DNA of 64,000 nt from Oceanispirochaeta sp. GTDB taxonomy: Bacteria; Spirochaetota; Spirochaetia; DSM-2461. The notes under the pieces were generated by a model, which did not search any database, was not told the DNA's origin, and saw nothing but the letters and a program-made list of their open reading frames with translations. Made by a program: the position numbers and the translations under genes. This document shows positions 12,342-32,011 of this stretch, one piece after another; the stretch's first letter is position 1, and the number at the start of each line of letters is the position of its first letter. The DNA is taken from NCBI GenBank assembly GCA_963666275.2, contig CAXXOA010000001.1, positions 1,312,001 through 1,376,000 on the forward strand, read 5' to 3'.

Positions 12342-13913
12342 ATGGATATTGCCTCTCTTCCTTTAGAAGCGCAAAGAGAATTCCTTTTGCTGAAACAGCA
12401 ACTCGCTGAATCAAAAGCCCAGAACCAGAACTGGGAAAAGAAATATCAGCTTCTTGAAGAGAAGTTGGCTTTGGCATTGCATCGTCAATTCGGTCGAAGA
12501 GCAGAAAATATTCCTGATCAGATTGAATTATTTGATACAGATGAAGCTGTGACTCCAGAGGAAGACAGTTCGGTAGAACAGCAAATAGATTCTTACAAGC
12601 GTAAGAAAACAGGCAGAAAGCCTCTGGATGAGAACCTTCCCCGTAAAGAAAAGATTATTGATATTCCTGAGGATGAAAAAACCTGTGCCTGCGGTACGGA
12701 ACTGAAGAAAATCGGGGAAGAGATCTCTGAGAAACTGCATGTGATTCCTCCCCGTATCTGGGTAGAGCGGATTATCCGGTTTAAATATGCCTGTGGTAAT
12801 TGCGAAGGAACCGCCGATGAAGATATTCCTGCTGTAAAGATTGCCCCTCCGGAGCCTTCCATCATCCCCAAAGGGATAGTTACTCCCGGTCTGTTGGCAT
12901 TTCTGATGGTAAACAAGTACGTGGACCATCTTCCTTTTTACCGACAGGAAAAGCGGTTTGAGCGAATGGGAGCCCGGATTAGCCGTCAGAATATGAGTAA
13001 TTGGCAAAAAAAGGCTTTTGAAGCTCTTCTCCCTCTCTTCGAACTGCTGAAAATACATACAAAATCCGGTGTGGTTCTTCAAATGGATGAAACAACCGTA
13101 CAGGTTCTGAATGAACCATGTCGGGATAACAAACAAAAATCCTATATGTGGCTGGCCAGAGGCGGTCCTCCGGGACAACAAGCTGTTTATTATGAATACC
13201 ATCCGACACGGGCATCGGAACATGCAAAGAATTTTCTCACAGGTTTTAAAGGGTATCTTCAAACCGATGGATATCAAGGATACAAAACCGCGGTAGAAGG
13301 CAATCCCGATATACATCTGGTAGGTTGCTTTGCTCATGCCAGAAGGAAGTTCTTTGAGGCTGATAAAGCCAGTAAAAAATCTAAAAGTGCTCTGGAAGGA
13401 ATCAAGCATATCAAGAAGCTCTATGCCTTGGAAAAAGATCTAAGGAGTAGAAAATTATCTTCTGAAGATTTCCTGGAACAACGGAAAAGCAAGGCTGAGC
13501 CTATTCTTGATGCATTTAAACGATGGCTGGATAAACGTTCTGAGAATATTCTACCGGAAAGTGCTTTGGGAAAAGCGGTTCACTATGCATTGAATCAATG
13601 GGATTATTTGATTCGATATCTGGAAAGCCCCTATCTGACTCCGGATAATAATGCCAGTGAAAATGCTATTCGTCCTTTTGTTCTGGGGAGGAAAAACTGG
13701 CTATTTTCCGGGAATCCCAAAGGGGCAGACAGTTCCTGCGGGATGTATTCTCTGATTGAGACTGCAAAACAAAATAATTTGAATCCCTTTGATTATCTGC
13801 ATTATGTTTTCTCTAAAGCTCCGCTCATCAATAATGAACAAGAATGGGAAGAATTATTACCATGGAATTTAAAAGATAACATTACGGCTGATAAAGGGCC
13901 TGTGTTTATTTGA
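12342..13913 (+). CDS. tnpC: IS66 DDE transposase TnpC
   Basis: Zn ribbon CACG/CGNC, KYVDHLPFYRQ, QMDET, LQTDGY, CFAHARRKF, DNNASENAIRP, LLPWN; stop codon lies inside the right IR. Confidence 0.96.
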   Translation: MDIASLPLEAQREFLLLKQQLAESKAQNQNWEKKYQLLEEKLALALHRQFGRRAENIPDQIELFDTDEAVTPEEDSSVEQQIDSYKRKKTGRKPLDENLPRKEKIIDIPEDEKTCACGTELKKIGEEISEKLHVIPPRIWVERIIRFKYACGNCEGTADEDIPAVKIAPPEPSIIPKGIVTPGLLAFLMVNKYVDHLPFYRQEKRFERMGARISRQNMSNWQKKAFEALLPLFELLKIHTKSGVVLQMDETTVQVLNEPCRDNKQKSYMWLARGGPPGQQAVYYEYHPTRASEHAKNFLTGFKGYLQTDGYQGYKTAVEGNPDIHLVGCFAHARRKFFEADKASKKSKSALEGIKHIKKLYALEKDLRSRKLSSEDFLEQRKSKAEPILDAFKRWLDKRSENILPESALGKAVHYALNQWDYLIRYLESPYLTPDNNASENAIRPFVLGRKNWLFSGNPKGADSSCGMYSLIETAKQNNLNPFDYLHYVFSKAPLINNEQEWEELLPWNLKDNITADKGPVFI

Positions 13914-15178
13914 CGCTTACGGAATACGAAGTAGGCCCGGCATTCACTGCTATTATCCGCTCCTATCTGGAGCGGTCCCTGATTTTCAATCTGGTGGACG
14001 AAGAGCTCCGGGATGAGATGATCGAAGAGATCAAATTCTCCCTTTCGGGACTGGCTTCCGGGGAGCTTGAAACCGGCGGGATCAAGCTGGCTGAGTACTT
14101 CCTGGTGGGCAGCGTCACCGAGCTGGGAGCAGACTTCCGCCTTACCCTGCAGCTTGTGTCGGTGGAAACCGGCGAGGTTGTGGGAAGCGCCGGTAAGGCT
14201 ATTCCCAAAGAAGAGGTTTTTGAAACCTCCGAAGCCTATACCGCCGCCTATGTGAGCCCCTACGGACTGGGAATCGAGTTCGGAGTGATCCCCTGGGCCA
14301 CTACCATGGGAGAGATGGCCCAAAGGGAAGGGCAGCCCCATCCCCAGGAGTTTAACCTCTTTTCCATTATGCTCCATTACAGGATCCGCAAGTGGCTTGT
14401 GGCCTGGGGCGGTCTGGCCCTGGCTCCGGGAGCTGTCCGGTTTGACAAGTCCTATAATGAGAAGGGCATTAATCTGGATGCGGAGGACGTGGAGAATATG
14501 GGAGCCGATCTTCCCGAGGGATCAACGATAACCTACTCCAAAGACAGATCTCCCTATTTTTCTCTCCATCTGGGAGCCGGGTATGTATGGAACTTTTCTA
14601 AAACCCTGAACCTCACGGCCGGGGCGGAGCTGAGTATGGCCCAGACCTTTCTGGAACAGGAATACACTATACCACTGGATGATACCCAGATGTCCTACGG
14701 AACCTATACGGTGACTTCCAATGATATTTCCCTGTATACAATCGCCCCGACTTTAAAGGTACAGTATTTTGTGACCCCCCGGGTGGCTTTTCAGTTTACC
14801 TACCAGTTCAAATATCAGATGAATAAGGATACCGAATCCACCAACTACTTTTTCCGGGACGGCTCCTACGGGGACGGAGCTCCGATTCCGGAACTCTATG
14901 ATCTGGATCCTACGGTTGATCCCTATGGCGAGAAGCATATCACCGATATGTCGGGCCATACGGTTAATATGGGGGTGGGGTTTTATTTTTAGATTAGAAA
15001 GACGAATATCTCTCTTTATGCATTATCCTATTCCTGAATATTTGGCATAGACTGTGAAATATGACTATTCTATAGAAAAATCCCATGACACAGCCATTGT
15101 GAACTGGAAAGGGAATGAATTTTAAACATCCCCTGTAAAGGGAGAATGGAATGAAACACAAGAGAGGAAATTGATCAT

Positions 15179-17116: not shown

Positions 17117-17280
17117 TTGGAAATTCAGGCCTTGTCAAATCTGCGAAGTTGCAGATACACTGAATTTTACAAATCGATCCTGCTGAAAAGGGGGAGTCAG
17201 GAATGCCTGTTTCTGTCCCGTAGAAAAACAGCGGGATGAGAGAACAGTCCCTATCTGGAACAGGAATATCTGGAGTGAGT

Positions 17281-18897
17281 GTGAAAGTACTGATCGCCGA
17301 TGATGAACACAGAGTATGCCAGCTGATCAGGCATCTTATTCCCTGGGAAGAGTTCGGTCTGGACCTTGCCGGTATTGCCTACAACGGAATCGAAGCCTAT
17401 GAACTGATACGGACGGAGAAACCGGATATTGTCATCACAGATATCCGCATGCCCGGCTATGACGGGCTGACACTCCTTGAAAAAAGCAAGGAGCTGGATC
17501 CTTCCATCAGTTTTATTATTGTCAGCGGGTACAAGGACTTTGAGTATGCCCAGAAAGCCCTGAAATACGGAGCGGAAGACTATATTCTGAAACCTGTCTC
17601 CCATGATGATATCAACAGGATCCTGCGGAAGATCATCGACAGAAGGAACAGTGATCAGAACAGAATTCAGGAAGCCCTGGAAACCAGGGAGGAACTGGAA
17701 CAGAACAGGAATATCCTCAAAAAGGAGCTTGTTAAAAAGCTTCTCAATAGTGATTTCAAATTAGACAGCGAGACCCGGCAGAGTTTATCAAATGGAAATA
17801 TTGTGAATTTCCAGGCCCCCTGTTTTATGGTGTTTATCATTCAGGCGGACTGCATAGATCAGTCCCTTCTGGGGACAGAGCATTACAGTATCTCTGTAAA
17901 AATACTGGAAAGAGTGGAAGAGTTGGTCAACTCCCATGCCGGAGTGGAGGGGATCGAAACTCTGAGTGCCTATACAAAGTACAGTCTGATCTACCTGTGG
18001 GAGTGCCCCGGGCCTGCCATCAGCCGGGACGACTGGGAGCGGCTCCAGGAACAGGCCTCTCAGAAAATTGCCGGTTTCAGTGACTGGAGGGTCACATTCT
18101 GCATGGGGGGCGTGTATCCGGGCCTTGAGAATCTCAGTGCCAGCTATTCCGATGCCGAACTGATACGAAAAGACCGTCTGTTTCAGGGAACCGGGAAGGT
18201 GCTTACCCTGCGGCCGGATCTTCCCGGTTTTGAGAAATTTGAACAGCCTGACAGTGCCCCTCTGGCCGATGCGGTCAATAGAGTCCTGGAGAATCAGGAT
18301 CTGGACCAGTTTGCCTATGGGATCTCCACCTATGTGATCGGACTGACCCGGACGATTACTCATCCGGATCAGCTTTTCCGGACCTATCGATTTCTCTGTG
18401 ATGCGATTTTTGAACAGTTCAGAAAACTCAATGTGAACGGGGATTATATAGGCGAAGCATACGAAACGGCTGCATCCATATTAGACCTGACTCACAATAT
18501 GAAACTCATGAATACCCGTTTGTCCCGGCTGTTCAAAGATATGGCGAAAACTGTAATTTCCTCCCGGAAAGTGCTGGACAATAAACCCATCAGAATCGCC
18601 AAGGATTACATCTCCCGGAATTATGCCGAACCCATCGATCTTAATATGGTTGCCGCCCAGGCCGGTCTGAATCCCATCTATTTCAGTACCCTGTTCAAAA
18701 AGGAAACAGGAATGAATTTCAAGGACTTTCTGGTGGATATCCGTCTTGAGAAGGCCAGGGAGCTGCTTGTGAACAGCAATGAGACCATTCAGGAGATCAG
18801 TCACCTGGTGGGGTACAGGGATACAAGGTATTTCAGCAGAATATTTGCCAGGAATGTAGGCTTGAAACCCAATATCTACAGAAAAATCCATGGCTGA
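17281..18897 (+). CDS. YesN-type response regulator (receiver + C-terminal AraC HTH)
   Basis: VLIADDE, ITDIRMP, YILKP; C-terminal YFSTLFKKETG...YFSRIF. Likely GTG start 17281 after GGAG (ORF opens at 17236). Confidence 0.9.
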   Translation: MKVLIADDEHRVCQLIRHLIPWEEFGLDLAGIAYNGIEAYELIRTEKPDIVITDIRMPGYDGLTLLEKSKELDPSISFIIVSGYKDFEYAQKALKYGAEDYILKPVSHDDINRILRKIIDRRNSDQNRIQEALETREELEQNRNILKKELVKKLLNSDFKLDSETRQSLSNGNIVNFQAPCFMVFIIQADCIDQSLLGTEHYSISVKILERVEELVNSHAGVEGIETLSAYTKYSLIYLWECPGPAISRDDWERLQEQASQKIAGFSDWRVTFCMGGVYPGLENLSASYSDAELIRKDRLFQGTGKVLTLRPDLPGFEKFEQPDSAPLADAVNRVLENQDLDQFAYGISTYVIGLTRTITHPDQLFRTYRFLCDAIFEQFRKLNVNGDYIGEAYETAASILDLTHNMKLMNTRLSRLFKDMAKTVISSRKVLDNKPIRIAKDYISRNYAEPIDLNMVAAQAGLNPIYFSTLFKKETGMNFKDFLVDIRLEKARELLVNSNETIQEISHLVGYRDTRYFSRIFARNVGLKPNIYRKIHG

Positions 18898-19924
18898 TTA
18901 CAAGCTGCACTCCCACTCCCTGGCTGTTGAGCTCAAAAGGCATGTGGCTTTTCTTGTCCTGCTGGGCGTTCTCTTCCTGACGCTGACCTGTCTTCCTGTT
19001 CCCCGGGAATTGTGGGGAACCCTGGGCCGGGTGATCCTGGGCATTCTGCTTTTGGGGGATCTGGTTTCCCTGATTGTGTATGTCTACAGGCCTATTCGGA
19101 AAATGGAAGAGGCAATGAAACTGCTCACCCGGGGAGAACAATCCATTTTTGAGGAATTCAAACCGGAAAAAGACAGTGTCACCCTGTCCATCCATCTGCA
19201 TGAGCTCATTGAGATGCTCAAGCAGTCCCTTGATCGGGAGTACACATCGGATCTGCTGAAAAAAGAAGCTGAACTGAAGGCGCTTCAGAGTCAGATCAAT
19301 CCTCACTTCCTGTATAACGTTCTGGATGCTATCCGGGGACATGCCCTGACCGAGGGGGTTCCTGAAATAGCTGAAATGACGGAAGCCCTGTCGAATCTTT
19401 TCCGTTACAGCGTGAGTTACTGGGAAAACGAAGTTTCCCTGAAGAAGGAACTGGGAAATGTGGCCAGTTTTTTTAAAATTCAGCAGTACAGATTCAATAA
19501 CAAGTTTGATCTGCAGATCCTTGCCGGGGAGGATGAAGAGGAAACCCTGAAATGTCTGCTCCCCAAACTGACCCTGCAGCCCATTATTGAGAACTCCATC
19601 TACCACGGCCTGGAGATGAAACTGGATCACGGGCTGGTGACGATCAGAACCAGACTGTCCCGTACGGTCCTGCTTGTTGAAATCAGTGATGACGGGGTGG
19701 GGATGCCCGCAGAAATGGTCGACCAGTTAAACAGCGCCTTCCGGAACTGGCGGGACGCTCCCGGTGACAGAAAGAACTCCCGGGGAAGCGGCATCGCCCT
19801 TGCCAATGTGAACAGCAGGATCAAGATGATGTATGGAGAGGACTACGGACTCCATGTGTACAGTACGGAAAATTTCGGCACCACCGTGGAAATCCAGCTG
19901 CCTGTAAATAAAGAAGAGACATAG
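18890..19924 (+). CDS. YesM/LytS-type sensor histidine kinase with two closely spaced TM helices
   Basis: LQSQINPHFLYNVL, LQPIIENSIYHG, DDGVG, GIALANVNSRI. Confidence 0.9.
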   Translation: MADYKLHSHSLAVELKRHVAFLVLLGVLFLTLTCLPVPRELWGTLGRVILGILLLGDLVSLIVYVYRPIRKMEEAMKLLTRGEQSIFEEFKPEKDSVTLSIHLHELIEMLKQSLDREYTSDLLKKEAELKALQSQINPHFLYNVLDAIRGHALTEGVPEIAEMTEALSNLFRYSVSYWENEVSLKKELGNVASFFKIQQYRFNNKFDLQILAGEDEEETLKCLLPKLTLQPIIENSIYHGLEMKLDHGLVTIRTRLSRTVLLVEISDDGVGMPAEMVDQLNSAFRNWRDAPGDRKNSRGSGIALANVNSRIKMMYGEDYGLHVYSTENFGTTVEIQLPVNKEET

Positions 19925-19953
19925 GCCGCACTTGTGAGACCGGAGCAGGGAAT

Positions 19954-21408
19954 ATGGAAGAGTTAATACGAATCAGAGAACTTTCTACAGAAAACCCCTA
20001 TGAAGCATCCCTCAAGGATTTCAGACTCCAGTCTTTTGAAGGGGAGATCCTCGGGCTGGTGGGGCTGAACGGTTCCGGGAAAAGAACTCTCGTCAAAGTT
20101 CTGTCGGGAGAGATAAATCCTGTCGGCGGCCATGTGTTTCTTCAGGGAAAAGAGATTATCAGCCCCCTTCTGAAACCCGGAAGGAATCAGCTCGAACGGG
20201 AGGGCCTCTTTGTTGTTCAGAATATCAACAGACTTATCAAAGATCTGAGCATTTCAGAAAATCTCTCCATCTCCTCCAATATGAATTTCTTCAGTATGCT
20301 CCGGGCTCCCCACAATCTTGAAAAAATATCAGCCTCTGTTCTGGATGAGTTTATTCCGGAACTGGACCGTGATACCCCTGTGGACTATCTGCCCCCTGCG
20401 GAACATGCCCGGGTCGGTCTTCTGAAAGCCTATATGGAGGGAGCAAAGCTGATTGTTCTGGATGGGGTCCTTGAGGTCTGCCGCCGCAAAGAGGAAGAGG
20501 CGCTGATCACTCTGTTGAAACGGCTCAGGTCCAGAGGAGTGGGGATCATTGTCACCTACAACCGGGTGGCCCCTTTTCTGCAGTCTTTTGACAGGGTTGC
20601 CGTGATCTCCGGCGGGCAGCTTAAGAATATCATGTTCAGGGACAGCTTTAATCAGAGTCAGCTGGCGGACCTGATTGTCGGGGGCAAATACAGGGAACAA
20701 ACAGCTCACCGGGAAAGTTCCGATCCGCCGGTGAGCAGCAGGATCCTGGATGTCAGAAACATTTCTCTGGGAAAGAACTTCAGAAATTGCAGTTTTTATC
20801 TCTGCAGCGGAGAGATCCTGGGCATCCATGATCCTTTGAATGAAACCGCCCACAGGCTTCTTCAGTTGTTCAGCGGCATCATTCCCCTGGAACAGGGGAG
20901 AATCCATATAAACGGAAGAGTGCAGGAGCTTTTGAAAGAGCATAATGCCTTGCAGTCGGGATTAGGGATCGTTTCTGAAAAATTTTTCGAATACTCCTTT
21001 TTCAGAGGTTTGAACGCCGGGGAGAATCTGGAGATCTCGGCCGCGAAATCTGCTTCATCCCTGTGGGGGCACATCCCTTCTTCGTTGCATCACTATTTTC
21101 AGAAGAACTATCTCAGGAGCATAGGATTTTCAGAAGAGCTGCTGGAACAGCCTGTGGAGTATCTTGATCGGGATCTTCAGTTTATCCTGGTGCTTCATAT
21201 GAAGATCCTGAGCGGAGCAAAAATCTTTATTCTTGAAAACCCTGTTCAGAGTGCGGACCTTCTGTCCCGTGATCTTATCTACAGAAAAATGAGCTCTCTG
21301 CGGAAAAAGGGAATGGGTGCCATTTTTATCTCCGGTTCCATGGGCGAACTCGATGGTTTCTGCGACAGAATTCTCTACTGCGACTATAGTGAAGGAATAT
21401 TGAAATGA
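19954..21408 (+). CDS. Degenerate RbsA/MglA-like tandem ABC ATP-binding protein
   Basis: Two-NBD length; Walker A GLNGSGKR, but Walker B is LIVLDGV / IFILENP and there is no LSGG signature. Confidence 0.75.
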   Translation: MEELIRIRELSTENPYEASLKDFRLQSFEGEILGLVGLNGSGKRTLVKVLSGEINPVGGHVFLQGKEIISPLLKPGRNQLEREGLFVVQNINRLIKDLSISENLSISSNMNFFSMLRAPHNLEKISASVLDEFIPELDRDTPVDYLPPAEHARVGLLKAYMEGAKLIVLDGVLEVCRRKEEEALITLLKRLRSRGVGIIVTYNRVAPFLQSFDRVAVISGGQLKNIMFRDSFNQSQLADLIVGGKYREQTAHRESSDPPVSSRILDVRNISLGKNFRNCSFYLCSGEILGIHDPLNETAHRLLQLFSGIIPLEQGRIHINGRVQELLKEHNALQSGLGIVSEKFFEYSFFRGLNAGENLEISAAKSASSLWGHIPSSLHHYFQKNYLRSIGFSEELLEQPVEYLDRDLQFILVLHMKILSGAKIFILENPVQSADLLSRDLIYRKMSSLRKKGMGAIFISGSMGELDGFCDRILYCDYSEGILK

Positions 21409-22355
21409 AAGGTTCTACGGGGTATCTGAAAAAAAAGATTCATTACAATACGGCTGTGATTCTTATCCTGCTTCTGGGAGAATTCCTCGTTCTGAAGGTA
21501 TTTGTTCCCCAGTATCTATCACTGGGAAATATCATAAGCATCGGGAGACAGTCCTCCATCACAGGGATTATCGCCATCGCAATGGGGTTTGTCCTGATCA
21601 GCGGGGGCATTGATTTTTCCCTGGGATCCCAGATTGCCTTCAGCAGTATGATTGTCTCCATTTTCATGGTACGTCTGCACTTTCCCGTTGCCCCGGCACT
21701 GATTCTGGGCCTGACGGTATGCACGTTCTCAGGATTTCTTAACGGGATGATCTGTGCAAAAATCCGGATACACCCTTTTATTCTGACCATGGCGACAGGA
21801 GTCATTTACAGGGCCGCCGCCAAGGTCCTGAACTGGGGGATGCCTCTCTACGGGCTGCCCGAGGGGTTTCTGGGACTGGATCAGTTTCAGTTCCTCGGGC
21901 TGCCCCAGTCGCTTCTTATGCTTCTGCTCTGCCTTCTGGCCGGGCATTATATCCTGAGAAAAACCTACCTGGGAAAGTATATCTATGCCATCGGAATCGA
22001 TGAGAAAACGGCGGAGTTCGCCGGCATCAATACAAAGAAGATCAAATGGACGGTCTATGGAATCGCCGGTTTTTTCTGCGGAATCGCGGGCATCCTCCTC
22101 CTCGCCCGTGTGGGATCCGCCCAGCCTTCGGCCCTTTCCGGGATTGAACTGGATGTGCTTGTGGCCGCTGCGATCGGCGGTGTGGGATTCAAGGGAGGGA
22201 AGGGCTATCTTATCAATATAGTTCTGGGAGTCCTTATCATGGAATTTTTCGGCGATGCTCTGATTATTTTCGGTGTGGGCGAATATTTCCGGAATATTTT
22301 CAAGGGACTCGTTCTTCTCCTGGCCCTCTATATGGATGATGCGGTCAGATCTTAA
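21405..22355 (+). CDS. Monosaccharide ABC transporter permease (RbsC-like)
   Basis: ISGGIDFSLG, GKYIYAIG, ELDVLVAAAIGG. Confidence 0.88.
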   Translation: MKGSTGYLKKKIHYNTAVILILLLGEFLVLKVFVPQYLSLGNIISIGRQSSITGIIAIAMGFVLISGGIDFSLGSQIAFSSMIVSIFMVRLHFPVAPALILGLTVCTFSGFLNGMICAKIRIHPFILTMATGVIYRAAAKVLNWGMPLYGLPEGFLGLDQFQFLGLPQSLLMLLLCLLAGHYILRKTYLGKYIYAIGIDEKTAEFAGINTKKIKWTVYGIAGFFCGIAGILLLARVGSAQPSALSGIELDVLVAAAIGGVGFKGGKGYLINIVLGVLIMEFFGDALIIFGVGEYFRNIFKGLVLLLALYMDDAVRS

Positions 22356-22443
22356 TTTTCTCCCCTCATATCTTTAATCTGTCACATTGCGGTGTGAATT
22401 CTGCCCCTGTAAAATAAACTTATCATCAAGGGGAGAATGAATT

Positions 22444-23967
22444 TTGCCAAAACCTATTTTAGAAATGAAGGATATCACCAAATACTTTTCGGGTGTTCAG
22501 GTACTGGATAAGGTCTGTCTGAAGGTTATGCCCGGAGAAGTGCATGCGCTGATGGGTGAGAACGGGGCGGGCAAGTCAACACTAATGAATATCCTGATGG
22601 GAATTCATACGGCCGACGGCGGTGAAATCTTTCTGGAAGGGAAAGAGATTTCCAACAAAACTCCCAGGGAAGCCATGGACAGAGGCATCTCCATGATTCA
22701 TCAGGAGCTGCATCCCATCCGGGATATGGACGTGACGGAAAATATCTTTCTGGGAAGGGAAATCCGGAAAGGTACGGACGGTATTATAAGCCTGGTCAAT
22801 AAAAAAGAGATGCTGCATAAGGCCCGGGAGCTGTTCGAAGAACTGGGTATTGCCATCAGTCCTTCGGCTCTCATGCGGGATCTCAGTGTGGCTCAATGCC
22901 AGCTCATTGAAATGGTCAAAGCCATTTCCATTTCAGCCAAAGTTATAATTATGGATGAACCGACTTCTGCCATTACGGATAAAGAGGTTGATATCCTGTT
23001 CAAACAGATCCGCTATCTTAAATCCAAAGGGGTCTCCATCATCTATATCTCTCATAAAATGGACGAAATCTTTCAGATAGCCGATTCCATTACGGTCCTG
23101 CGGGACGGCCAGTATATCGGGACCGATGCTTCGGCAAATCTGAATAATGACAAACTTATAAGCATGATGGTGGGCCGGGAAATCAGCGGAATCTATCCGA
23201 AAGAGACCGTTTCGATTGGTGATGTCACCATGGAGGTGAAAAACCTCAGCTGGGGAAAAAGGGTCAGGAATGTCAATTTTGAACTCCATCAGGGAGAGAT
23301 CCTGGGGCTGGCAGGTCTTGTAGGCGCCGGGCGAAGCGAACTTGTGGAAACCCTGTTCGGCATTAACAGCAAAACTTCCGGAGAGATCTATATCCGGGGG
23401 AACAGGACGGATATCCGCAGACCTGCGGATGCGATCTCCCATCGTATCGCTCTGATCACCGAAGACAGGAAGAGATCGGGATTGAATCTGATCGGTTCGA
23501 TCACCGAAAACGTCACCCTGGCGTCTCTGGGCTCTCTTTTCTCGAAAGGGATTATCAACAAAAAACTGGAAGGATCCCTCACAGAAGAGAGTATTAAAAA
23601 ACACAAAGTGAAGACAGTTTCCAGAAAAGCCCTGGTCAAATCGCTCAGCGGCGGCAATCAGCAGAAGGTGGTCATCGCCAAGTGGCTTCTGACAGAACCG
23701 GATATCATCATTATGGATGAACCTACCCGGGGCATCGATGTGGGAGCCAAGCGGGATATCTACCTGCTGCTGGGAGAGCTTGTAAAAGCTGGAAAATCTG
23801 TACTTGTTATCTCATCGGAGATCCCCGAGATCATGGGGATTGCCGACCGGATCCTGATCATGGCGGAAGGACAGGTTACCGGAGAGCTGATGCGGGAAGA
23901 ATTTACACAGGAAAAAATTATGCATTACGCGTCAAAATTCAACAAAGGGAAAAAGAATGAAAAATAG
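22444..23967 (+). CDS. Monosaccharide ABC transporter ATP-binding protein (RbsA/MglA-like, intact)
   Basis: GENGAGKST, IIMDEPT, YISHKM, LSGGNQQK, DEPTRGIDVGAK. Confidence 0.93.
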   Translation: MPKPILEMKDITKYFSGVQVLDKVCLKVMPGEVHALMGENGAGKSTLMNILMGIHTADGGEIFLEGKEISNKTPREAMDRGISMIHQELHPIRDMDVTENIFLGREIRKGTDGIISLVNKKEMLHKARELFEELGIAISPSALMRDLSVAQCQLIEMVKAISISAKVIIMDEPTSAITDKEVDILFKQIRYLKSKGVSIIYISHKMDEIFQIADSITVLRDGQYIGTDASANLNNDKLISMMVGREISGIYPKETVSIGDVTMEVKNLSWGKRVRNVNFELHQGEILGLAGLVGAGRSELVETLFGINSKTSGEIYIRGNRTDIRRPADAISHRIALITEDRKRSGLNLIGSITENVTLASLGSLFSKGIINKKLEGSLTEESIKKHKVKTVSRKALVKSLSGGNQQKVVIAKWLLTEPDIIIMDEPTRGIDVGAKRDIYLLLGELVKAGKSVLVISSEIPEIMGIADRILIMAEGQVTGELMREEFTQEKIMHYASKFNKGKKNEK

Positions 23968-24919
23968 AAATGGAATATTGGCTTTAAGATCCATGAGGGA
24001 ACTGGGAATTGTTTTTGTTTTTATCTGTATCCTGGTAACCCTGATGATTCTATCACCCAATGCTTTTGCCAGGCCTGCCAACCTGATCAATATATTCAAA
24101 CAGGCCTCTATAAACGGGATTCTCGCCATGGGAATGATGTTTGTTATCATCTCCGGAGGGATCGACCTCTCTGTGGGATCCATTGTGGCCCTGACTGGTG
24201 TGGTGTCCGCCAGCTTTGCCCATCCCGGAGAGTACCCTCTGATCGTTCCCATTCTTCTGGCTCTAATCCTGGGACTTTTTATAGGATGGCTGAACGGCGT
24301 GGGTGTTTCCTACGGAAATATACCGGCCTTTATTGTGACACTGGGGATGATGACCATCATCCGGGGAGTGGCGCTTATCGTGGCAAAGGGAGCTCCTGTT
24401 TTCGGCGTGACAGATCAGTATGAACTCATCGCCGGAGGATTCCTTTTTGACACAATCCCATTTCTGGTTGTCTATTTCACGGCGATAACTGCATTCAGCG
24501 CCTATGTATTGAATAAGACAGTCTTCGGAAGGCGTGTCTATGCTGTGGGCGGGAATGAAATCTCCGCGGCTTTTTCGGGAATCAATGTCAATAAAATACG
24601 GATTATGGTATTTATGATCTCCGGACTCTTTGCGGGATTCGCCGGATTGCTCCTGGCCTCAAGAACTGTCTCGGGGAATCCCACGGCGGGTCAGTCCTAC
24701 GAACTGGATGCCATTGCCGCCGTTATTATCGGAGGCGTCAGTATGTCCGGCGGTTCCGGGAAATGGTATGGAACCGTGGTGGGCGCGCTGCTCATCGCCG
24801 TTATAGGAAATGGTCTGGACATACTCAATGTGTCGTCCCACTACCAGCTGGTTATCAAAGGGGCCATTATCATTTCTGCCGTACTACTGGATGTTAAAAG
24901 CAGGGAAAAAACGGTCTAG
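23957..24919 (+). CDS. Monosaccharide ABC transporter permease
   Basis: GGIDLSVGS, FGRRVYAVGGNE, YELDAIAAVIIGG. Confidence 0.92.
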   Translation: MKNRNGILALRSMRELGIVFVFICILVTLMILSPNAFARPANLINIFKQASINGILAMGMMFVIISGGIDLSVGSIVALTGVVSASFAHPGEYPLIVPILLALILGLFIGWLNGVGVSYGNIPAFIVTLGMMTIIRGVALIVAKGAPVFGVTDQYELIAGGFLFDTIPFLVVYFTAITAFSAYVLNKTVFGRRVYAVGGNEISAAFSGINVNKIRIMVFMISGLFAGFAGLLLASRTVSGNPTAGQSYELDAIAAVIIGGVSMSGGSGKWYGTVVGALLIAVIGNGLDILNVSSHYQLVIKGAIIISAVLLDVKSREKTV

Positions 24920-24949
24920 GCTGTTTGATATATATTAGAGGAGGAAGAT

Positions 24950-25879
24950 ATGAAAAAAATCTTTGCAATGGTTTTATTGTCGGTATTTGCACTCACAACC
25001 GGTCTGTTTGCTGCCGGACAGGGTGACAATGAAGGAAAGCCCCAGAAATATGCACTTATGATGAGTCATATGACCAATGCCTTCACCATGGAAATGTCCA
25101 GCGCGGTGAAGGAGAAAGCTGAAGAACTGGGAGTAAATCTGACTGTATTTGACGGAGAGCAGGATGTTTCCAAACAGATCAGCCAGGTGGAATCCGCGAT
25201 CATTCAGGGATATGTGGGAATTGTGATCGAACCTGTATCCGTGGATGGCGTTAAACCTGCCGTCAAGGCTGCCAAAGAAGCGGGTATACCGCTGATTACC
25301 CTGAACCAGAAAATCACTGATCAGGAACTGGCCAGTGCGTTTGTCGGAGCCAACCCCATCGAAGGGGGAGAGCTTGAAATGAGAACCGCTGCCGAAGAGA
25401 TGGGCGGATCCGGAAAAGTGGCTTTTCTGCTCGGACCTTTAGGTTCGGATGCGCAGATCGGCCGAACCCAGGGGTATAAAAATGTTCTGAAAGATTACCC
25501 CGGCATTGAAGTCGTCTACGAACAGACTGCCAACTGGAGAACCGATGAGGCTCTGGAACTGGTTGAAAACTGGCTTCAGACCGGTGTGGAACTGAAAGCC
25601 ATCGTGGCTAACAACGACGGTATGGCTCTTGGAGCACTGAAAGCCGTGGAAGATGCCAAGCTTCTGGATCAGATTAAAATCTACGGTCTTGATGCCACTC
25701 CCGATGCCATGGCTGCTGTCAAAGAAGGACGTCTGTCTGCGACTATTTCCCAGAGTACTTCCGAACAGGGAAAAACAGCAATGGAATCTATTGTGAAAAT
25801 TGTAAACGGAGAATCCATTCCCTCTGAAATCATTGTTGGACACACTCTGATTAACAGTTCCAATATCAACGATTTCTAA
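24950..25879 (+). CDS. Sugar ABC transporter substrate-binding protein (RbsB-like; ribose/inositol class)
   Basis: Signal peptide, ANNDGMALGA, IYGLDA, ATISQ; GAGGAGG RBS. Confidence 0.9.
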   Translation: MKKIFAMVLLSVFALTTGLFAAGQGDNEGKPQKYALMMSHMTNAFTMEMSSAVKEKAEELGVNLTVFDGEQDVSKQISQVESAIIQGYVGIVIEPVSVDGVKPAVKAAKEAGIPLITLNQKITDQELASAFVGANPIEGGELEMRTAAEEMGGSGKVAFLLGPLGSDAQIGRTQGYKNVLKDYPGIEVVYEQTANWRTDEALELVENWLQTGVELKAIVANNDGMALGALKAVEDAKLLDQIKIYGLDATPDAMAAVKEGRLSATISQSTSEQGKTAMESIVKIVNGESIPSEIIVGHTLINSSNINDF

Positions 25880-25904
25880 TTCGGAGAACAACATCTCTTT
25901 TCGG

Positions 25905-25936
25905 GGACCGGCAGATTGCTGCCGGTCCTTTTTTTT
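25905..25936 (+). terminator. Rho-independent terminator
   Basis: GGACCGGCAG-ATTG-CTGCCGGTCC hairpin followed by T8. Confidence 0.9.
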
Positions 25937-26102
25937 CCAAATAATTCCAGACGGCTCCGGTTTTTTCGAACCCACATTTCTGTGGGATTGTCAGATAATG
26001 GACACCCGGATGTATGACTTCGTAGGACCTTCGAGAGCACTTTGAAGATCAAAACCCTCCCTCACAGGCCTTTCGGATCTCCCGGAGCCATTGTTACCGG
26101 AT

Positions 26103-26118
26103 TGGCACTTTTATTGCA
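26103..26118 (+). promoter_or_regulatory. Sigma54 (-24/-12) promoter
   Basis: TGGCAC-TTTTA-TTGCA is an exact match to TGGCAC-N5-TTGCW, about 60 bp before the cheY-like start. Confidence 0.8.
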
Positions 26119-26176: not shown

Positions 26177-26545
26177 GTGAAACTGTTAATTGTGGATGAT
26201 TCCAATATTATCCGTCGTGCCATCCAATTCTATCTGAAAGAGTTCAATATGGAGATCTGCGGTTCCGTCAGCAACGGAGAAGACGCGGTCCGCTGCTATG
26301 AGGAGCAGAAGCCCGATCTGGTGACCATGGATATCACCATGCCCGGTATGGACGGCCTCAGCGCCCTGGAGAAAATCATCGAAATAGATCCTGATGCGTC
26401 TGTGATTGTCATCTCAGCCCTGAAAGATAAAAGCACAGGCATCAAAGCCCTGACCCTGGGGGCCTGCGGATTCCTTTCCAAACCCTTTACCCCTGATCAG
26501 CTGAAAGAGGAAATACAGGCTTTCCTGGAGGAACGGAGCACATGA
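26177..26545 (+). CDS. Single-domain CheY-like response regulator
   Basis: LIVDDS, TMDITMPGMDG, ISA, FLSKPF; no output domain. Confidence 0.9.
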   Translation: MKLLIVDDSNIIRRAIQFYLKEFNMEICGSVSNGEDAVRCYEEQKPDLVTMDITMPGMDGLSALEKIIEIDPDASVIVISALKDKSTGIKALTLGACGFLSKPFTPDQLKEEIQAFLEERST

Positions 26546-27006
26546 AAGAAGAAGAGATTAAAGTCTTTATTGATATAGTCACCCACTATTTCCGGGAGAT
26601 CTCGGGAGAGGAAGCCCGCATGGGGGTTCCCTTTATCAAAAACGATAACCTGTCTGTCATGGACTATACAGGGATCATCGGGATCTCCGGTAAATACAGG
26701 GGAGGGATCTACCTCTCCGCCGACAGCGATCTTCTGGCCGAAGTGGCCTCATGCATTCTGGGGCTGGAAGCGGATCTGGTAGACGGGGAAGCCCGGGAGG
26801 ATATGCTGGGGGAGATTACCAATACCATCGCCGGGAATGCCCGCAGCAGCTTCGGCAGCCAGTTTATGATCTCCGTTCCCATTGTCATCAAGGGGCGCCC
26901 CGAGGATATCTCGTTCAAACTGAAACCGCCCGTTTTTGTCATCCCCATCACCTGGCGGGATCACTCCTGTTTTCTGGCCATCGGACTGGAAGAGGAGGCA
27001 TTATGA
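26542..27006 (+). CDS. cheX: CheX-family CheY-P phosphatase
   Basis: TGIIGISG..G, DMLGEITNTIAGNA (ExxN motif), ISVPIVI. Confidence 0.88.
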   Translation: MKEEEIKVFIDIVTHYFREISGEEARMGVPFIKNDNLSVMDYTGIIGISGKYRGGIYLSADSDLLAEVASCILGLEADLVDGEAREDMLGEITNTIAGNARSSFGSQFMISVPIVIKGRPEDISFKLKPPVFVIPITWRDHSCFLAIGLEEEAL

Positions 27007-29756
27007 TTGATATTCAGCAGCTTCTGGACGTGCTCTGGGTCATCATGGCATCGAGCCTTGTCTTTTTTATGCAGGCCGGATTTTCCATGGTGGAATCGGG
27101 GCTGACCCGTTCCAAAAACAGCATCAATGTGGCCGTCAAAAACCTGACCGACCTGGGGGTCTCCATCCTGATCTTCTGGGCCGTGGGGTTTGCCCTGATG
27201 TTCGGAAACAGTTACCGGGGTGTCTCGGGGATGAGCAACTGGTTTTTCCGCTTTTCCGACAATACCCTTATGATCTCGGCCGCCTTCTTTCTGTTCCAGG
27301 CTATGTTCTGCAGCACTTCGGCGACCATTGTTTCCGGTGCTGTGGCCGAAAGGATGCGCTACGCCTCCTATATCATAAGCACCATCCTGCTGTCGGGGAT
27401 TATCTATCCCGTCTTCGGCCACTGGGTCTGGGGCGGCGCAGGGGGCAGTGAAATCGGCCTCGGCTCAGGCTGGCTGGGGGCTATGGGATTTGTCGACTTT
27501 GCCGGCTCTTCGGTGGTTCACAGCGTGGGCGGCTGGGTAGGCCTGGCGATCCTTCTGATCATAGGGCCCCGGACCGGACGCTTTGCCGAAGACGGCACAT
27601 CCCGCCCTGTTCCCGGGAGCAGTATCCCCATGGCCGTAGGCGGGGTGATTATCCTGTGGTTCGGCTGGATCGGCTTTAACGGGGGCAGTACCCTGGTTAT
27701 GGACGGCAGCGTGCCCGGAATCATTATGAGAACCTGTCTGGCCGCTTCGGCGGGTATGGTAGGAGCCCTGGCGGCAGGGTGGATCATCAAGAAAACTCCC
27801 GACGTGGGATTTGTCCTGAACGGCGCCCTGGCCGGGCTTGTGGCTATTACCGCTCCGGTTCATGCGGTGAACGAGGTGGAATCGGTGATTATCGGCGCCG
27901 TGGGCGGGCTGGTTATGCTGATCTGTACGGACCTCCTGGAAAAGCTGAAAATCGACGACGCCGTGGGAGCCATACCGGTTCATCTGGCGGCGGGTATCTG
28001 GGGAACCCTGGCAGTGGGAATCTTCGGGGATCCTGAAATCCTGGGGACCACACCGTTGTTCGGTTCCCAGTTTCTGGTTCAGCTGATCGGAGTTGGGGCC
28101 TGCGGTCTCTGGAGTTTCCTCACAGCCTGGATCATCCTGAACATCATCAATAAAATATCGCCCCTCCGGGTTTCTGTAGAAGACGAACACAAAGGTCTCA
28201 ACGTGGCCGAGCACGGGGCATCCACCGAAACCTATCAGCTCTTCCAGGTCATGGAGGAGCAGGCCAGGTCGGGGGATCTTTCCCTGCGAGTGCCTGTGGA
28301 ACCCTTTACAGAAATCGGTCAGATTGCCGCGCGGTACAATGCGGCTCTGGCGGGGTTTGAAGAGAACTCGGTGGCCCGGAGCGACTACCAGACCATTCTG
28401 GACAACGTGAGCGACGGCCTTTTTCTCATTAACAGCGACGGGGCCATCTCACCCAATTACTCGGCGGCCACGGAAGGAATTTTCTGCCGGGAGGATCTGG
28501 CGGGAGTGACGCTGGAAGATCTTGTAAAACCCATGCTCACCGAAAAGGATTTCAAGGCTTTCAGTGACTATCTGCCCCTCCTTTTTGATCCCAAAATGAA
28601 AACAAGAACCCTGGACCGGCTCAATCCCCTGTCGGAAACGGCCTTTTATCTGGACACGGGAAAGGGGGAGTTCAATACCCGGTATCTGAAGTTCCGGTTC
28701 AGCCGGATTGCTCCGGAGGGGATCATTACCCATCTTATGATTCTGGTGACCGACTGTACCGCCGAAAAGGAGATCGCCCAGTCTCTGGAGGCGGAAAGGC
28801 GGAAAAACCAGGGGGAAATGGAGATGTTCTACAGCATCCTTCACCTCCAGCCCGATCTTTTCCGGGAGTTTCTCTCAAGCGCCGAAGAGGACCTGGACAG
28901 AGTCAATGAGGCTCTGGAACATCAGGGAGTAGGACTGGGGCAGCGTCTGGAGGAGATCTTCCGGCATATCCATTCGGTCAAGGGAAACGCCGCTCTCCTG
29001 GAGCTGGATTTCATAGCCCAGAGTGCCCATGAGTTTGAAGACGCCATACAGGAACTTCTGGAGAAAAAAGACCTTCAGAATGACGATTTTCTTGGTCTGA
29101 CCGTTATGCTCAGCGAAATGTACGGCGTGCTGGAGCAGATCCGCCGGCTGATGGAACGGCTCAGCAATTTCAGGGAAAATATGGTGAAACATGATCAGAT
29201 GGGCGGGGAACTGATTGCTCTCTCCCTGCAGAAGCTTGCGGGAAAAACAGCCGAAGAGCTGGGTAAGAAAGTGGAGTTCCGGTTTCAGGATTTCCGGAGC
29301 CGGGACATTCCACCGGCCTACAGAAAACCCCTGAAGGATCTGATGATCCAGCTGGTGCGCAATGCGGTTTCCCACGGTATCGAAGAGGAGAAGATCCGGA
29401 TCATGAACGGAAAAACCCCGGTGGGCCGTCTGGAGATAAAAAGCCGGCTGGACGAGGGCGTTCTGACCCTCACAGTCCGGGACGACGGACGGGGACTGGA
29501 TTTTCTGAAACTGAGAGACCGTTCTGTGCAGCTGAATCCGGACAATCCCAGGGAGGATAAAAAGAGTCTGTTCCTTTCTATGTTCCAGTCGGGAATCTCC
29601 ACCGCAGACGAGGTGGGCCGGCACAGCGGCCGGGGCGTGGGAATGGCTCTTGTAAAAACCATTGCGGAAGAACTGAAGGCCCGGCTTGTGGTGAAAACCA
29701 GGGAAAACCAGTTTTGCGAATTCAATCTTTCCATCCCTCTGGAGGGCAGCTTATGA
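27003..29756 (+). CDS. Ammonium transporter (Amt) fused to HAMP-like, PAS, HPt and CheA-type HATPase domains, without a CheW domain
   Basis: Start ATG 27003 (GAGG RBS, ATGA overlap with cheX); 917 aa. Amt: FMQAGF, SGAVAER, DFAGSSVVH, WIGFNGGS, DDAVGAIPVH. HAMP-like: GDLSLRVPVEPFTEIGQIAARYN. PAS: ILDNVSDGLFLI. HPt: IFRHIHSVKG. Kinase: LVRNAVSHGIE, DDGRG, GISTADEVGRHSGRGVGM. Confidence 0.92.
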   Translation: MIDIQQLLDVLWVIMASSLVFFMQAGFSMVESGLTRSKNSINVAVKNLTDLGVSILIFWAVGFALMFGNSYRGVSGMSNWFFRFSDNTLMISAAFFLFQAMFCSTSATIVSGAVAERMRYASYIISTILLSGIIYPVFGHWVWGGAGGSEIGLGSGWLGAMGFVDFAGSSVVHSVGGWVGLAILLIIGPRTGRFAEDGTSRPVPGSSIPMAVGGVIILWFGWIGFNGGSTLVMDGSVPGIIMRTCLAASAGMVGALAAGWIIKKTPDVGFVLNGALAGLVAITAPVHAVNEVESVIIGAVGGLVMLICTDLLEKLKIDDAVGAIPVHLAAGIWGTLAVGIFGDPEILGTTPLFGSQFLVQLIGVGACGLWSFLTAWIILNIINKISPLRVSVEDEHKGLNVAEHGASTETYQLFQVMEEQARSGDLSLRVPVEPFTEIGQIAARYNAALAGFEENSVARSDYQTILDNVSDGLFLINSDGAISPNYSAATEGIFCREDLAGVTLEDLVKPMLTEKDFKAFSDYLPLLFDPKMKTRTLDRLNPLSETAFYLDTGKGEFNTRYLKFRFSRIAPEGIITHLMILVTDCTAEKEIAQSLEAERRKNQGEMEMFYSILHLQPDLFREFLSSAEEDLDRVNEALEHQGVGLGQRLEEIFRHIHSVKGNAALLELDFIAQSAHEFEDAIQELLEKKDLQNDDFLGLTVMLSEMYGVLEQIRRLMERLSNFRENMVKHDQMGGELIALSLQKLAGKTAEELGKKVEFRFQDFRSRDIPPAYRKPLKDLMIQLVRNAVSHGIEEEKIRIMNGKTPVGRLEIKSRLDEGVLTLTVRDDGRGLDFLKLRDRSVQLNPDNPREDKKSLFLSMFQSGISTADEVGRHSGRGVGMALVKTIAEELKARLVVKTRENQFCEFNLSIPLEGSL

Positions 29757-31030
29757 CACCCGATGCGGGACTCCTTGAAAATGTCTCCCATGTGTACGAG
29801 AAGATTCCCGGACAGGATCAGGATGTGGATATCTTTGTACTGGAACCACCCCGGGAGCTGGATAAGGAGGATCCGGAAGGACGGGTTCTCCGGAAGGCCG
29901 GCCCGGGACGGCGCAAATCCAAAACGGTGAGCATGCTCAGTCACAGCCTCTATTATGTGACCGAAGACTGCCCCCTGGACCGGCTTGTGGAGGAACTTTC
30001 CGCCAAGAAGGACCTTTTTTCCATCGGTGTGGTGGACTCCCGGGGAGAAGCCAAGGGCCTTATCATCCGGCGGGAGCTCTTTGATCTTGTAGGCCGGTCG
30101 GGGAACACCGATCCCATGAAAGGGAAGAGGGCCGCCCAGGTTATGAAACTTGTCAAAACCTTTGCTCCCGATACCAGCGTTTTTTCTGTCGGCTCGGTGG
30201 TGGAAGAGGAAATGAAGGAAAGCCTGATCGTCTACTTTATGATCAAGGACGAGTACGGCCGCTTTGCCGGGTCTTTCTCCACCAAGGACCTGATGCTCTT
30301 CTATGCCCGGAACATGAACAGGGAAATGCAGCTGGTACAGGAAATTCAGAGCCGGATCGTCGAGCCCCAGGCCCGGCTGGATCTGTCAGACGGCGGGGCG
30401 GTCTGCGGAGTGAACCGCCATGCCCGGGAGGCCGGAGGAGACTATTTCCTGATCCGCCGGGTCCCGGACGGAAGGATTTTTTATGCCCTGGCGGATGTGT
30501 CGGGCAAGGGATACGCCGCCTCCCTTCTGACGGCAATCATAGGCTCCTTTCTGGAGAATACGACTTTTTCAAAAGGCCTTGCCGGATCCATTGGGAATCT
30601 CAACCGCTTTCTGCAGGAGAAATTCGCCGAAAAGGGGCTTTTTGTCACAGGCGTCTTCGTCCTGTTTGACGAAAAAAGCCCTGTTCTGGAAGTGTGCAAC
30701 TGCGCCCATCCCTTTTTCTATGTCCTGAGACGCAGAAAAATGAGAAAACTGAAGAGCCGTTCCAATCCTCCTCTGGGACTGGAGGGAGTGGATACACTGG
30801 AATGCTTCAATATCCGGCCCGAACCGGGGGACTGTCTGTTCCTCTGCAGCGACGGTATACCCGAACAGATGAATGAACTGGGCGAAACCTTTCCCCTTGC
30901 CTCTCTAGGGGGCATGACCGATCAGATCGACAAAGGGAAATTCCGCGAAAAGGTTCTGTCTGAAATCGACAGCTTCCGGGGATTTGCTCCCCAGCACGAT
31001 GATATTACCCTGCTGGTTCACCGCGTCTAA
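29753..31030 (+). CDS. CBS-pair + PP2C (SpoIIE/RsbU-type) phosphatase
   Basis: ATGA overlap with the kinase. CBS-like IGVVDSRGEAKGLIIRRELF and GRFAGSFSTKDL; PP2C motifs GGDYF, ADVSGKG, CSDGI, DDIT. Confidence 0.85.
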   Translation: MTPDAGLLENVSHVYEKIPGQDQDVDIFVLEPPRELDKEDPEGRVLRKAGPGRRKSKTVSMLSHSLYYVTEDCPLDRLVEELSAKKDLFSIGVVDSRGEAKGLIIRRELFDLVGRSGNTDPMKGKRAAQVMKLVKTFAPDTSVFSVGSVVEEEMKESLIVYFMIKDEYGRFAGSFSTKDLMLFYARNMNREMQLVQEIQSRIVEPQARLDLSDGGAVCGVNRHAREAGGDYFLIRRVPDGRIFYALADVSGKGYAASLLTAIIGSFLENTTFSKGLAGSIGNLNRFLQEKFAEKGLFVTGVFVLFDEKSPVLEVCNCAHPFFYVLRRRKMRKLKSRSNPPLGLEGVDTLECFNIRPEPGDCLFLCSDGIPEQMNELGETFPLASLGGMTDQIDKGKFREKVLSEIDSFRGFAPQHDDITLLVHRV

Positions 31031-31069
31031 AGAACACACATCCCTTCATGAAACTGAAGGGAACCCCTT

Positions 31070-32011
31070 TCAGCGGGACGCCTTGTCCAGCAAATCCAGA
31101 TCCTCTCTGTCCAGTTCCAGTTCGGGAGCTCTGAAAATGGTTTCCAGCTGTGTAATGCTTGTTGCACTGACGATCGGGGCTGTGATATCCGGCTTAGCCA
31201 GCAGCCAGGCAAGAGATACCATGGCGGGAGAGGCATTGTGCTTTTCCGACACCCGGTCCAGCGCGCTTAGTACATTCAAGCCCTGTTTGTTAAGATAGGG
31301 ACGGACCATTTCCGCCCGGGCTGAGCCTTCAAGGTCCTGGGTGCTTCTGTATTTCCCCGTAAGAAATCCGGCAGCCAGGGAAAAATAGGGAAACACCGAA
31401 AGATCGTATTCCTGCACCAGCGGCCTGTAGTTCTCCTCATAGGAAGGTTCTACAAGACTGTATTTAGGCTGGAGAACCGCATAGGCCGGGAGGGATTCTC
31501 CTGCTGATACCTCCATAGACTCTTTCAGCCGCTGGGGCGTCAGGTTCGATGCCCCTATATACCGGACCTTACCGGCTTTGATGATTTCATCGTAGGCCGA
31601 AAGGGTTTCTTCCACAGGGGTTTTCCCGTCATCAAAATGGGTATAGTAGATATCGATATAATCGGTCTGAAGGCGCCGGAGGGACTCATCTACACTTTTC
31701 AGAATGTGTTTCCTGCTGCTGTCTATGGGATGATTCTGATTCTGGGAACCCACCTTTGTGGCAATAACAATGCGGTCTCTGTTTTTCCGTTCACTCATCC
31801 AGGAACCGATGATTTTTTCTGACGTTTCTCCCACACCATTATGCCACCAGGGGTAGGTATCGGCAGTGTCTATAAAATTGAATCCTCCATCCTGAAAGGC
31901 ATCGAGAATTTCAAAGGACTGTTTCTGATCCAGAGTCCAGCCGAAAACATTGCCTCCGAAGTTGATAGGGCCCACAGAAAGGTCTGTATTTTTTATTTGA
32001 ACGCGATTCAT
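31070..32011 (-). CDS. Aldo/keto reductase
   Basis: FGGNVFGW, FIDTADTY, IATKVG, SLRRLQTDYIDIY, GKVRYIGASN. Confidence 0.93.
   Translation of the reverse strand: MNRVQIKNTDLSVGPINFGGNVFGWTLDQKQSFEILDAFQDGGFNFIDTADTYPWWHNGVGETSEKIIGSWMSERKNRDRIVIATKVGSQNQNHPIDSSRKHILKSVDESLRRLQTDYIDIYYTHFDDGKTPVEETLSAYDEIIKAGKVRYIGASNLTPQRLKESMEVSAGESLPAYAVLQPKYSLVEPSYEENYRPLVQEYDLSVFPYFSLAAGFLTGKYRSTQDLEGSARAEMVRPYLNKQGLNVLSALDRVSEKHNASPAMVSLAWLLAKPDITAPIVSATSITQLETIFRAPELELDREDLDLLDKASR

Follow-up and report, generated by a model that had tools for sequence, protein, structure and literature searches.

A candidate ammonium-sensing phosphorelay of the HKIII design encoded by an operon of Oceanispirochaeta

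The sequence studied belongs to Oceanispirochaeta sp. (GCA_963666275.2, contig CAXXOA010000001.1, positions 1,312,001-1,376,000 of the forward strand), and this whole stretch of 64,000 nt is called the window below. Positions 26177-31030 of the window hold four plus-strand open reading frames, which encode a CheY-like receiver, a CheX phosphatase, a kinase fused to an Amt domain (Amt-kinase) and a CBS-PP2C. The features of the locus are listed here.

25903..25940, plus strand: intrinsic terminator of the upstream sugar ABC operon (12-bp stem and T run)
25971..25986, no strand assigned: ACA-N4-TGT palindrome ("the box"), which may serve as enhancer for a sigma-54 activator of the nitrogen regulon, some 130 nt before the -24 element
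26103..26117, plus strand: sigma-54 -24/-12 promoter, a perfect TGGCAC-N5-TTGC by sequence match
26177..26545, plus strand: single-domain CheY-like receiver, 122 aa, GTG start (PF00072, E=2e-30)
26542..27006, plus strand: CheX phosphatase, 154 aa (PF13690, E=2e-20)
27003..29756, plus strand: Amt-HAMP-PAS-Hpt-CheA-type kinase, 917 aa (PF00909, PF01627, PF02518)
29753..31030, plus strand: CBS-pair/SpoIIE-RsbU-type PP2C, 425 aa (PF07228, E=3e-30; PF00571, E=2e-5)
31041..31062, minus strand: hairpin, perhaps a terminator common to the operon and the convergent gene at 31070-32011, between which it lies

The ATGA overlaps at 26542, 27003 and 29753 were read directly in the sequence and couple all four genes; the open reading frames, domains and overlaps given in an earlier, sequence-only reading of this locus were thus all recovered. 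That reading had also described a unit devoid of MCP, CheW, CheR, CheB and glnK genes, which is true for the operon, with such genes occurring elsewhere in the genome. The terminator (25903-25930, listed above to 25940) closes the upstream sugar ABC operon and thereby isolates the unit, whose downstream boundary is the hairpin followed by the convergent gene. GC3 is 0.62-0.69 in the operon compared with 0.49-0.58 in three neighbouring genes, and the Amt-kinase is present in 3 of the 11 genomes of the genus, a pattern that would be consistent with transfer or patchy loss. Upstream, positions 17236-25879 (plus strand) encode an AraC-type response regulator, a sensor kinase and the two ATPases and two permeases of the sugar ABC transporter; by conservation, none of these genes is related to the operon. 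Farther away in the window, four coupled plus-strand ORFs of 487, 200, 1124 and 393 aa (4548-11146), one of them SMC-like, form what we take to resemble the Wadjet jetABCD anti-plasmid cluster. Near-duplicate gene copies at 3168-4433 and 13910-14992 flank this cluster, the second being 5'-shortened beside a presumably IS66-like transposase gene (12342-13913).

The kinase matches the Pfam families Amt (PF00909, residues 11-407), Hpt (PF01627, residues 618-712) and HATPase_c (PF02518, residues 780-914). Its AlphaFold model (mean pLDDT 89.7; 86.5 for the cytoplasmic part modelled separately) comprises the Amt domain (4-404), a pair of HAMP-like helices (409-456), a domain of PAS-like fold (462-584), the Hpt bundle (617-732) and the ATPase (737-912). 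The HAMP-like/PAS-like linker at about residues 409-584 was absent from the earlier reading, as were the sigma-54 promoter and the upstream palindrome. The HAMP assignment is based on an alignment to Sd-Amt1 reaching residue 450 and on Pfam HAMP matches in relatives, and the PAS assignment on the order of structural elements and PAS_9 matches in relatives. The predicted phospho-accepting Hpt residue is H657 (codon 28971-28973). The ATPase structure matches CheA P4 with a TM-score of 0.75-0.85 (of target), and the protein terminates straight after it, at residue 917, without a CheW or P2 domain. In the P3 region, the models show no hairpin, with the final helix of the Hpt (693-732) continuing into P4, but in the alignment residues 715-740 correspond to the last part of E. 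coli P3. In 79/79 homologues, H657, K660, G661, E679, N787, H791, D827 and the G-boxes do not vary. The receiver active site (D7, D8, D52, S80, K102) is intact here and in all 23 Amt-fused loci, as is the E91-x-x-N94 motif of CheX, whose E and N are kept in 23/23. Catalytic residues are thus intact in kinase, receiver, CheX and PP2C alike. Since the kinase lacks a CheW domain, which the available text of PMC10782961 counts as core, it is not a CheA.

The closest sequence and fold matches of the Amt domain are the receptors Sd-Amt1 and Ks-Amt5, which rank above transporters. Sd-Amt1 matches with E=3e-119 over residues 9-450 and a fold TM-score of 0.95 (of target). By alignment, Q24, E31, K46, N47, D50, T108, S111, Y123, N273 and the His pair equal the ligand and switch residues of Sd-Amt1, whose N1/N2 roles are described in the accessible portion of PMC11152129. 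The exit-blocking N273 and the receptor-type F27/E31 are retained, and the pore residues (Phe gate, Trp, Ser, twin His) are invariant. The strict published AmR signature requires F or T following Asp; the kinase carries L51 at this non-ligand position. Among the 79 homologues, the strict signature matched 2 and a relaxed form 64. One stand-alone amt-glnK gene of the same genome matches the strict signature whereas the L51 kinase misses it, so sequence cannot separate receptor from transceptor. A pocket subgroup was also observed, with N47V in 15/79 homologues, Q24R in 14 of these 15 and a co-varying Gln-to-His change near residue 99 (P0019, P0030, P0053-P0055, P0057, P0065, P0068, P0069, P0075, P0076, P0079, P0093 and P0096, with P0026 partial); the arginine of Q24R might act as a mimic of bound ammonium or move the ligand to another position.

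The order cheY-cheX-kinase is intact in all 23 Amt-fused loci, a set that excludes L168 and G400 (a 1,955-base contig) and includes two loci that end at contig ends. Two collection scans gave 159 generic Amt loci, with Hpt or CheX in 0/159 and an ATPase match in one. Kinases with non-Amt sensors gave 49 matches, of which 35 were fetched; cheY and cheX are present beside 30 of these 35, and promoters and residues were counted in 31 of them, the four without a receiver being left out. MASE6, 7TMR-DISM, GAF and HAMP-linked sensors replace Amt in these relatives, and the PAS-like domain is common to all sensor variants. In a quick tree, the Amt fusions group together as a single clade within this larger multi-sensor family (SH-aLRT 96 for the clade). 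The position after the kinase holds a CBS-PP2C in 6/23 loci and a PAS-adenylate cyclase in 2/23, with nothing conserved in the remainder. This observation indicated that the unit of selection is the triad: of the four-gene cluster expected to be conserved, cheY-cheX-kinase held up and the PP2C as fourth gene did not. Adenylate or guanylate cyclase genes, fused to PAS or receiver domains, recur beside Amt and non-Amt triads (L116, L117, L129, L135). The excluded L168 (G305:C27), which has no kinase, cheY or cheX, encodes an Amt-HAMP-PAS protein of 600 aa that may be a relic of truncation or a split form.

About 100 of the 120 homologues listed have the Amt-Hpt-HATPase architecture, and those with names are Spirochaetota. 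The Atlas holds a 66-member cluster of this architecture, and CheW-less sensor-Hpt-ATPase clusters occur there also in Myxococcota, Bdellovibrionota and Pseudomonadota. A profile search adds many further kinase relatives of varied length. The cytoplasmic part of the kinase was matched in 18/38 genomes of the family and in at least 44/401 of the phylum, the phylum scan having scored three candidates per genome, so that presence is a lower bound.

The sigma-54 site at 26103-26117 is the sole match in the window at one mismatch or fewer. At this threshold, a site lies 30-108 nt before cheY in 15/23 Amt loci versus 0/31 non-Amt loci, with a background of 1.3% in random 400-mers. No site was found in 7/23 Amt loci, which speaks against the promoter being general; rpoN is nonetheless present in all four such genomes checked. 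Within the same genome, both amt-glnK operons, glnA, nifH and the Amt-GGDEF gene have sigma-54 sites, and the promoter check gave none for F2 cheA, Amt-MCP or the PP2C paralogue. A gapped-palindrome search of 22 promoters ranked ACA-N4-TGT first, in 15/22. The strict box occurs in 7/23 Amt loci versus 0.3 expected from Markov shuffles, and in 0/31 controls. Genome-wide, 5 of 81 sigma-54-like sites carry the box, namely those of the operon, both amt-glnK pairs, an amino-acid ABC binding protein and a nifV-like gene. Because the box was found on the same promoters, independent support is confined to two of these genome matches, both at nitrogen-related genes, and the nifH set. In that held-out set, the nifH upstream regions of 20 other genomes, a sigma-54 site is present in 15/20, the strict box in 6/20 (0.38 expected) and a loose box in 10/20 (1.64 expected). 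The box being common to the genome's own amt-glnK promoters and enriched before held-out nifH, the operon appears to belong to the nitrogen regulon. ACA-N4-TGT differs from the consensus sites of NifA and NtrC. A NifA-type TGT-N10-ACA at 25989-26004 was set aside for want of conservation (4/23; background 8%), and the box does not match the GnfM/NtrC-type site TGC-N11-GCA as given in Table S4 of PMC2995071.

A GAF-AAA-HTH NifA-like activator gene is present in 18/25 Amt-kinase genomes and adjoins amt in 15 of the 18; in the present genome, it lies beside amt-glnK-glnA, and neither ntrC (NtrBC) nor glnD was found over cut-off. nifH is over cut-off in 13/25 Amt-kinase genomes and not in the other 12. 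In the phylum sample, nifH accompanies 7/19 Amt-kinase genomes versus 25/381 others, with 5/24 for genomes with non-Amt kinases, and in the family 6/6 versus 12/32. Kin are not independent and non-Amt HKIII genomes are also nifH-enriched, so the association is confounded by lifestyle and kinship, and the link of nifH with the Amt-kinase is suggestive only. At L113 (G171:C31), the operon is divergent from nifH-nifI1-nifI2, and at G030:C1:429675-438944 it lies about 7 kb from nifH.

The genome is of the type of a flagellated spirochaete, with fliM. Elsewhere, it encodes two complete che clusters, one of them an F2-type cheA-cheW-cheX-cheY, together with two amt-glnK pairs, an Amt-MCP and an Amt-GGDEF protein, all outside the operon. 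With two che clusters and an Amt-MCP, this genome is not chemoreceptor-free. The Amt-MCP (G000:C1:919414-921759, L224) and the Sd-Amt1-like Amt-GGDEF (G000:C2:816697-818712, L225) make, with the kinase, three Amt sensors. A 622-aa Hpt/CheA-like protein, seemingly unlike canonical CheA, is encoded in the flagellar flhF-fliA region (G000:C1:2399398-2401266).

The reading we favour, with slightly better than even confidence, is that the operon encodes an ammonium-sensing phosphorelay of the HKIII design that belongs to the nitrogen regulon, is induced by nitrogen limitation and acts on a partner other than FliM. What the sequences show directly is the gene layout, its conservation and the patterns in promoters and residues; control by ammonium, phosphotransfer, induction when nitrogen is scarce and the identity of activator and target are inferred from them. 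When nitrogen is limiting, the ACA-N4-TGT box would be bound by a sigma-54 activator, for which the NifA-like protein encoded next to amt-glnK-glnA is the likeliest candidate, and the operon would be transcribed along with amt-glnK, glnA and nif genes. By homology to Sd-Amt1 and Ks-Amt5, ammonium may occupy the N1/N2 pocket of the trimeric Amt, and the HAMP and PAS domains would pass this signal to the CheA-type ATPase, so that H657 of the fused Hpt is phosphorylated. The fixed gene linkage and intact residues suggest that the phosphoryl group would move from H657 to D52 of the receiver and be removed by CheX, giving a fast signal without methylation-based adaptation. The same evidence supports the earlier proposal of an array-independent Amt-kinase acting on a CheY that CheX resets. 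In the least certain step, the phosphorylated receiver would bind its partner through a conserved acidic alpha4-beta5-alpha5 face, the partner presumably being encoded outside the operon in most genomes. The CBS-PP2C or PAS-adenylate cyclase genes would be lineage-specific, co-expressed additions. A likely role for the relay would be to tell cells starved of nitrogen that ammonium is available again outside. As a more speculative proposal, which we consider unlikely, the circuit would stand in for GlnD/NtrBC, with the NifA-like activator and the ACA-N4-TGT enhancer inducing the kinase and CheY feeding back on the activator, PII or nitrogenase control; if true, this would be an ammonium switch-off made from chemotaxis parts, with a previously undescribed enhancer.

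CheX is the chemotaxis phosphatase of spirochaetes, and the receiver is closest to the F2 CheY (42.6%) among 70 receiver matches in the genome, its nearest PDB structures all being motility CheYs. These likenesses speak for ammonium taxis or kinesis, in which the phosphorylated receiver would act on the motor (FliM/FliN) or as a phosphate sink in cross-talk with the main chemotaxis pathway. fliM is likewise present in 25/25 Amt-kinase genomes, but it is found in 379/401 genomes of the phylum, so we set this co-occurrence aside as uninformative. The residues that contact FliM (E. coli K91, I95, V108 and K119, taken from Table 3 of PMC3774744) were compared in an alignment with the conserved K-P motif as anchor. 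Receivers of the Amt operons carry D91 and T94 in 23/23, G, A or S at 95 in 23/23, P, S, K or T at 108 in 21/23 and E119 in 20/23; they thus do not look like motor-binding CheYs. F2-type CheYs, by comparison, have K/R91, V95, V108 and R119 in 15/15, and other HKIII receivers mostly keep the contacts (V95 in 24/31, K119 in 22/31). FliM of the host begins with the usual acidic peptide. The charge reversal in the receiver makes direct motor control unlikely, and its conservation indicates a different conserved partner. The genome also has its separate Amt-MCP, although full-length matches to it occur in only 3/25 genomes. We therefore disfavour the flagellar-switch output of the earlier reading and regard taxis or kinesis as unlikely. 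In a second HKIII subfamily (L131-L133, L136-L138, L140, L145-L149, L155-L162, L164 and L169), receivers of another clade keep V95, V/I108 and K119, the motor-binding residues, so HKIII outputs probably differ by subfamily.

A dedicated output through the CBS-PP2C, in which the phosphorylated receiver would control the PP2C and drive a STAS/anti-sigma partner switch, seems to us distinctly unlikely. This gene is translationally coupled to the kinase, its metal-binding and catalytic aspartates are invariant in 7/7, and it occurs in three separate kinase subclades; STAS/anti-sigma genes adjoin 5 of 15 paralogue loci, and in 6/35 non-Amt loci the region fetched contains other PP2Cs. However, the CBS-PP2C adjoins the kinase in only 6/23 loci (a seventh is probably split by a contig end), whereas the receiver face is conserved in 23/23. 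The PAS-adenylate cyclase takes its place in two loci, the operon PP2Cs form two groups on their tree, and they have no receiver domain. STAS matches were absent near the kinase in the 23 Amt loci and seen only beside paralogues, so the operon lacks the cluster of PP2C, STAS and anti-sigma kinase genes that marks partner switching. The PP2C is thus too patchy to be the general conserved partner of the receiver, and it is an accessory gene. At G000:C1:86739-90482, a CBS-PP2C paralogue is convergent with a STAS/anti-sigma-kinase fusion, a candidate partner-switching substrate, and a probable glycosyltransferase gene precedes it. On the input side, the Amt may still transport as a transceptor, or may anchor the kinase while the PAS domain or another ligand is read. 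The invariant pore, the PAS-like domain in every sensor variant and the N47V and Q24R substitutions would fit this, and N1/N2-type Amts include proven transporters according to the accessible portion of PMC11152129. On the other hand, N273 and F27/E31 are kept, the closest structures are non-transporting receptors and transport is provided for by two separate amt-glnK operons; we consider such an input very unlikely.

If the favoured phosphorelay reading holds, this is an HKIII-type kinase whose small-molecule ligand can be predicted, and the four proteins of the operon make both ammonium signalling and HKIII chemistry testable in vitro. To our knowledge, HKIII chemistry is still uncharacterised. 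For free-living spirochaetes, which often fix nitrogen, the box together with the sigma-54 site gives a first candidate signature of nitrogen-regulon promoters.

Class III histidine kinases (HKIII) reportedly combine a sensor, an Hpt and a CheA-type ATPase with no CheW and no P3, and their gene neighbourhoods are said to include a single-domain receiver and CheX. With this definition, the Amt operon shares its N-terminal sensor, its Hpt and CheA-type ATPase without CheW, and its receiver and CheX nearby. The operon differs in its Amt sensor, its occurrence in Spirochaetota, the lack of a soluble chemoreceptor, its sigma-54 nitrogen-regulon promoter and its occurrence in genomes without pilT over cut-off. 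The same core with many other sensors also runs against the earlier remark that no characterised system of such composition was known. HKIII kinases always accompany the type IV pilus marker pilT, as paraphrased in the available text of PMC6501615. Here, pilT (TIGR01420) was over cut-off in 0/25 genomes, 16 of which gave weaker, longer ATPase matches, and had no match whatever in the present genome (97% complete). We therefore describe the operon as working like HKIII and do not file it as a pilT-linked member; with pilT not found over cut-off, a role in type IV pili is less likely to hold for HKIII in general.

Our literature search, outside which the primary HKIII papers lay, returned no description of an Amt-Hpt-CheA fusion or operon, and a text search of the PMC11152129 supplements gave no matches for Hpt, HATPase, CheA or Spirochaet. 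The ammonia sensor in the available text of PMC12918730 is a non-Amt protein without bearing on this operon. Sd-Amt1 of Shewanella denitrificans (PDB 8QJ3/8QJ4), as described in the accessible part of PMC11152129, likewise has an Amt receptor with an N1/N2 pocket followed by HAMP, but its output is a diguanylate cyclase, whereas the Amt operon has a predicted phosphorelay. Ks-Amt5 of Kuenenia stuttgartiensis (PDB 6EU6) is likewise an Amt receptor fused to a histidine kinase, and ammonium modulates phosphorylation of this fused class I kinase in the available text of PMC5764959. There the kinase is a class I DHp-CA without HAMP and the response regulator is unidentified, whereas here an Hpt/CheA-type kinase has its receiver and phosphatase encoded alongside. 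The CheA core domains are P1, P3, P4 and P5 in the available text of PMC10782961, and CheA and the spirochaete F2 system share with our operon the Hpt phosphorylation site, the P4-type ATPase, CheX and CheY. In contrast to class II CheA, the Amt-kinase has its own sensor, no P5/CheW and, in the models, no P3 hairpin, and the operon has no MCP, CheR or CheB. RsbU/SpoIIE partner-switching modules share a PP2C with intact metal-binding aspartates; the operon PP2C differs in being accessory and in its CBS input, with no receiver and no STAS/anti-sigma gene. Overall, the Amt operon is most readily understood as a variant of the HKIII design that senses ammonium and not as a new class, and the promoter and box evidence is what is new.
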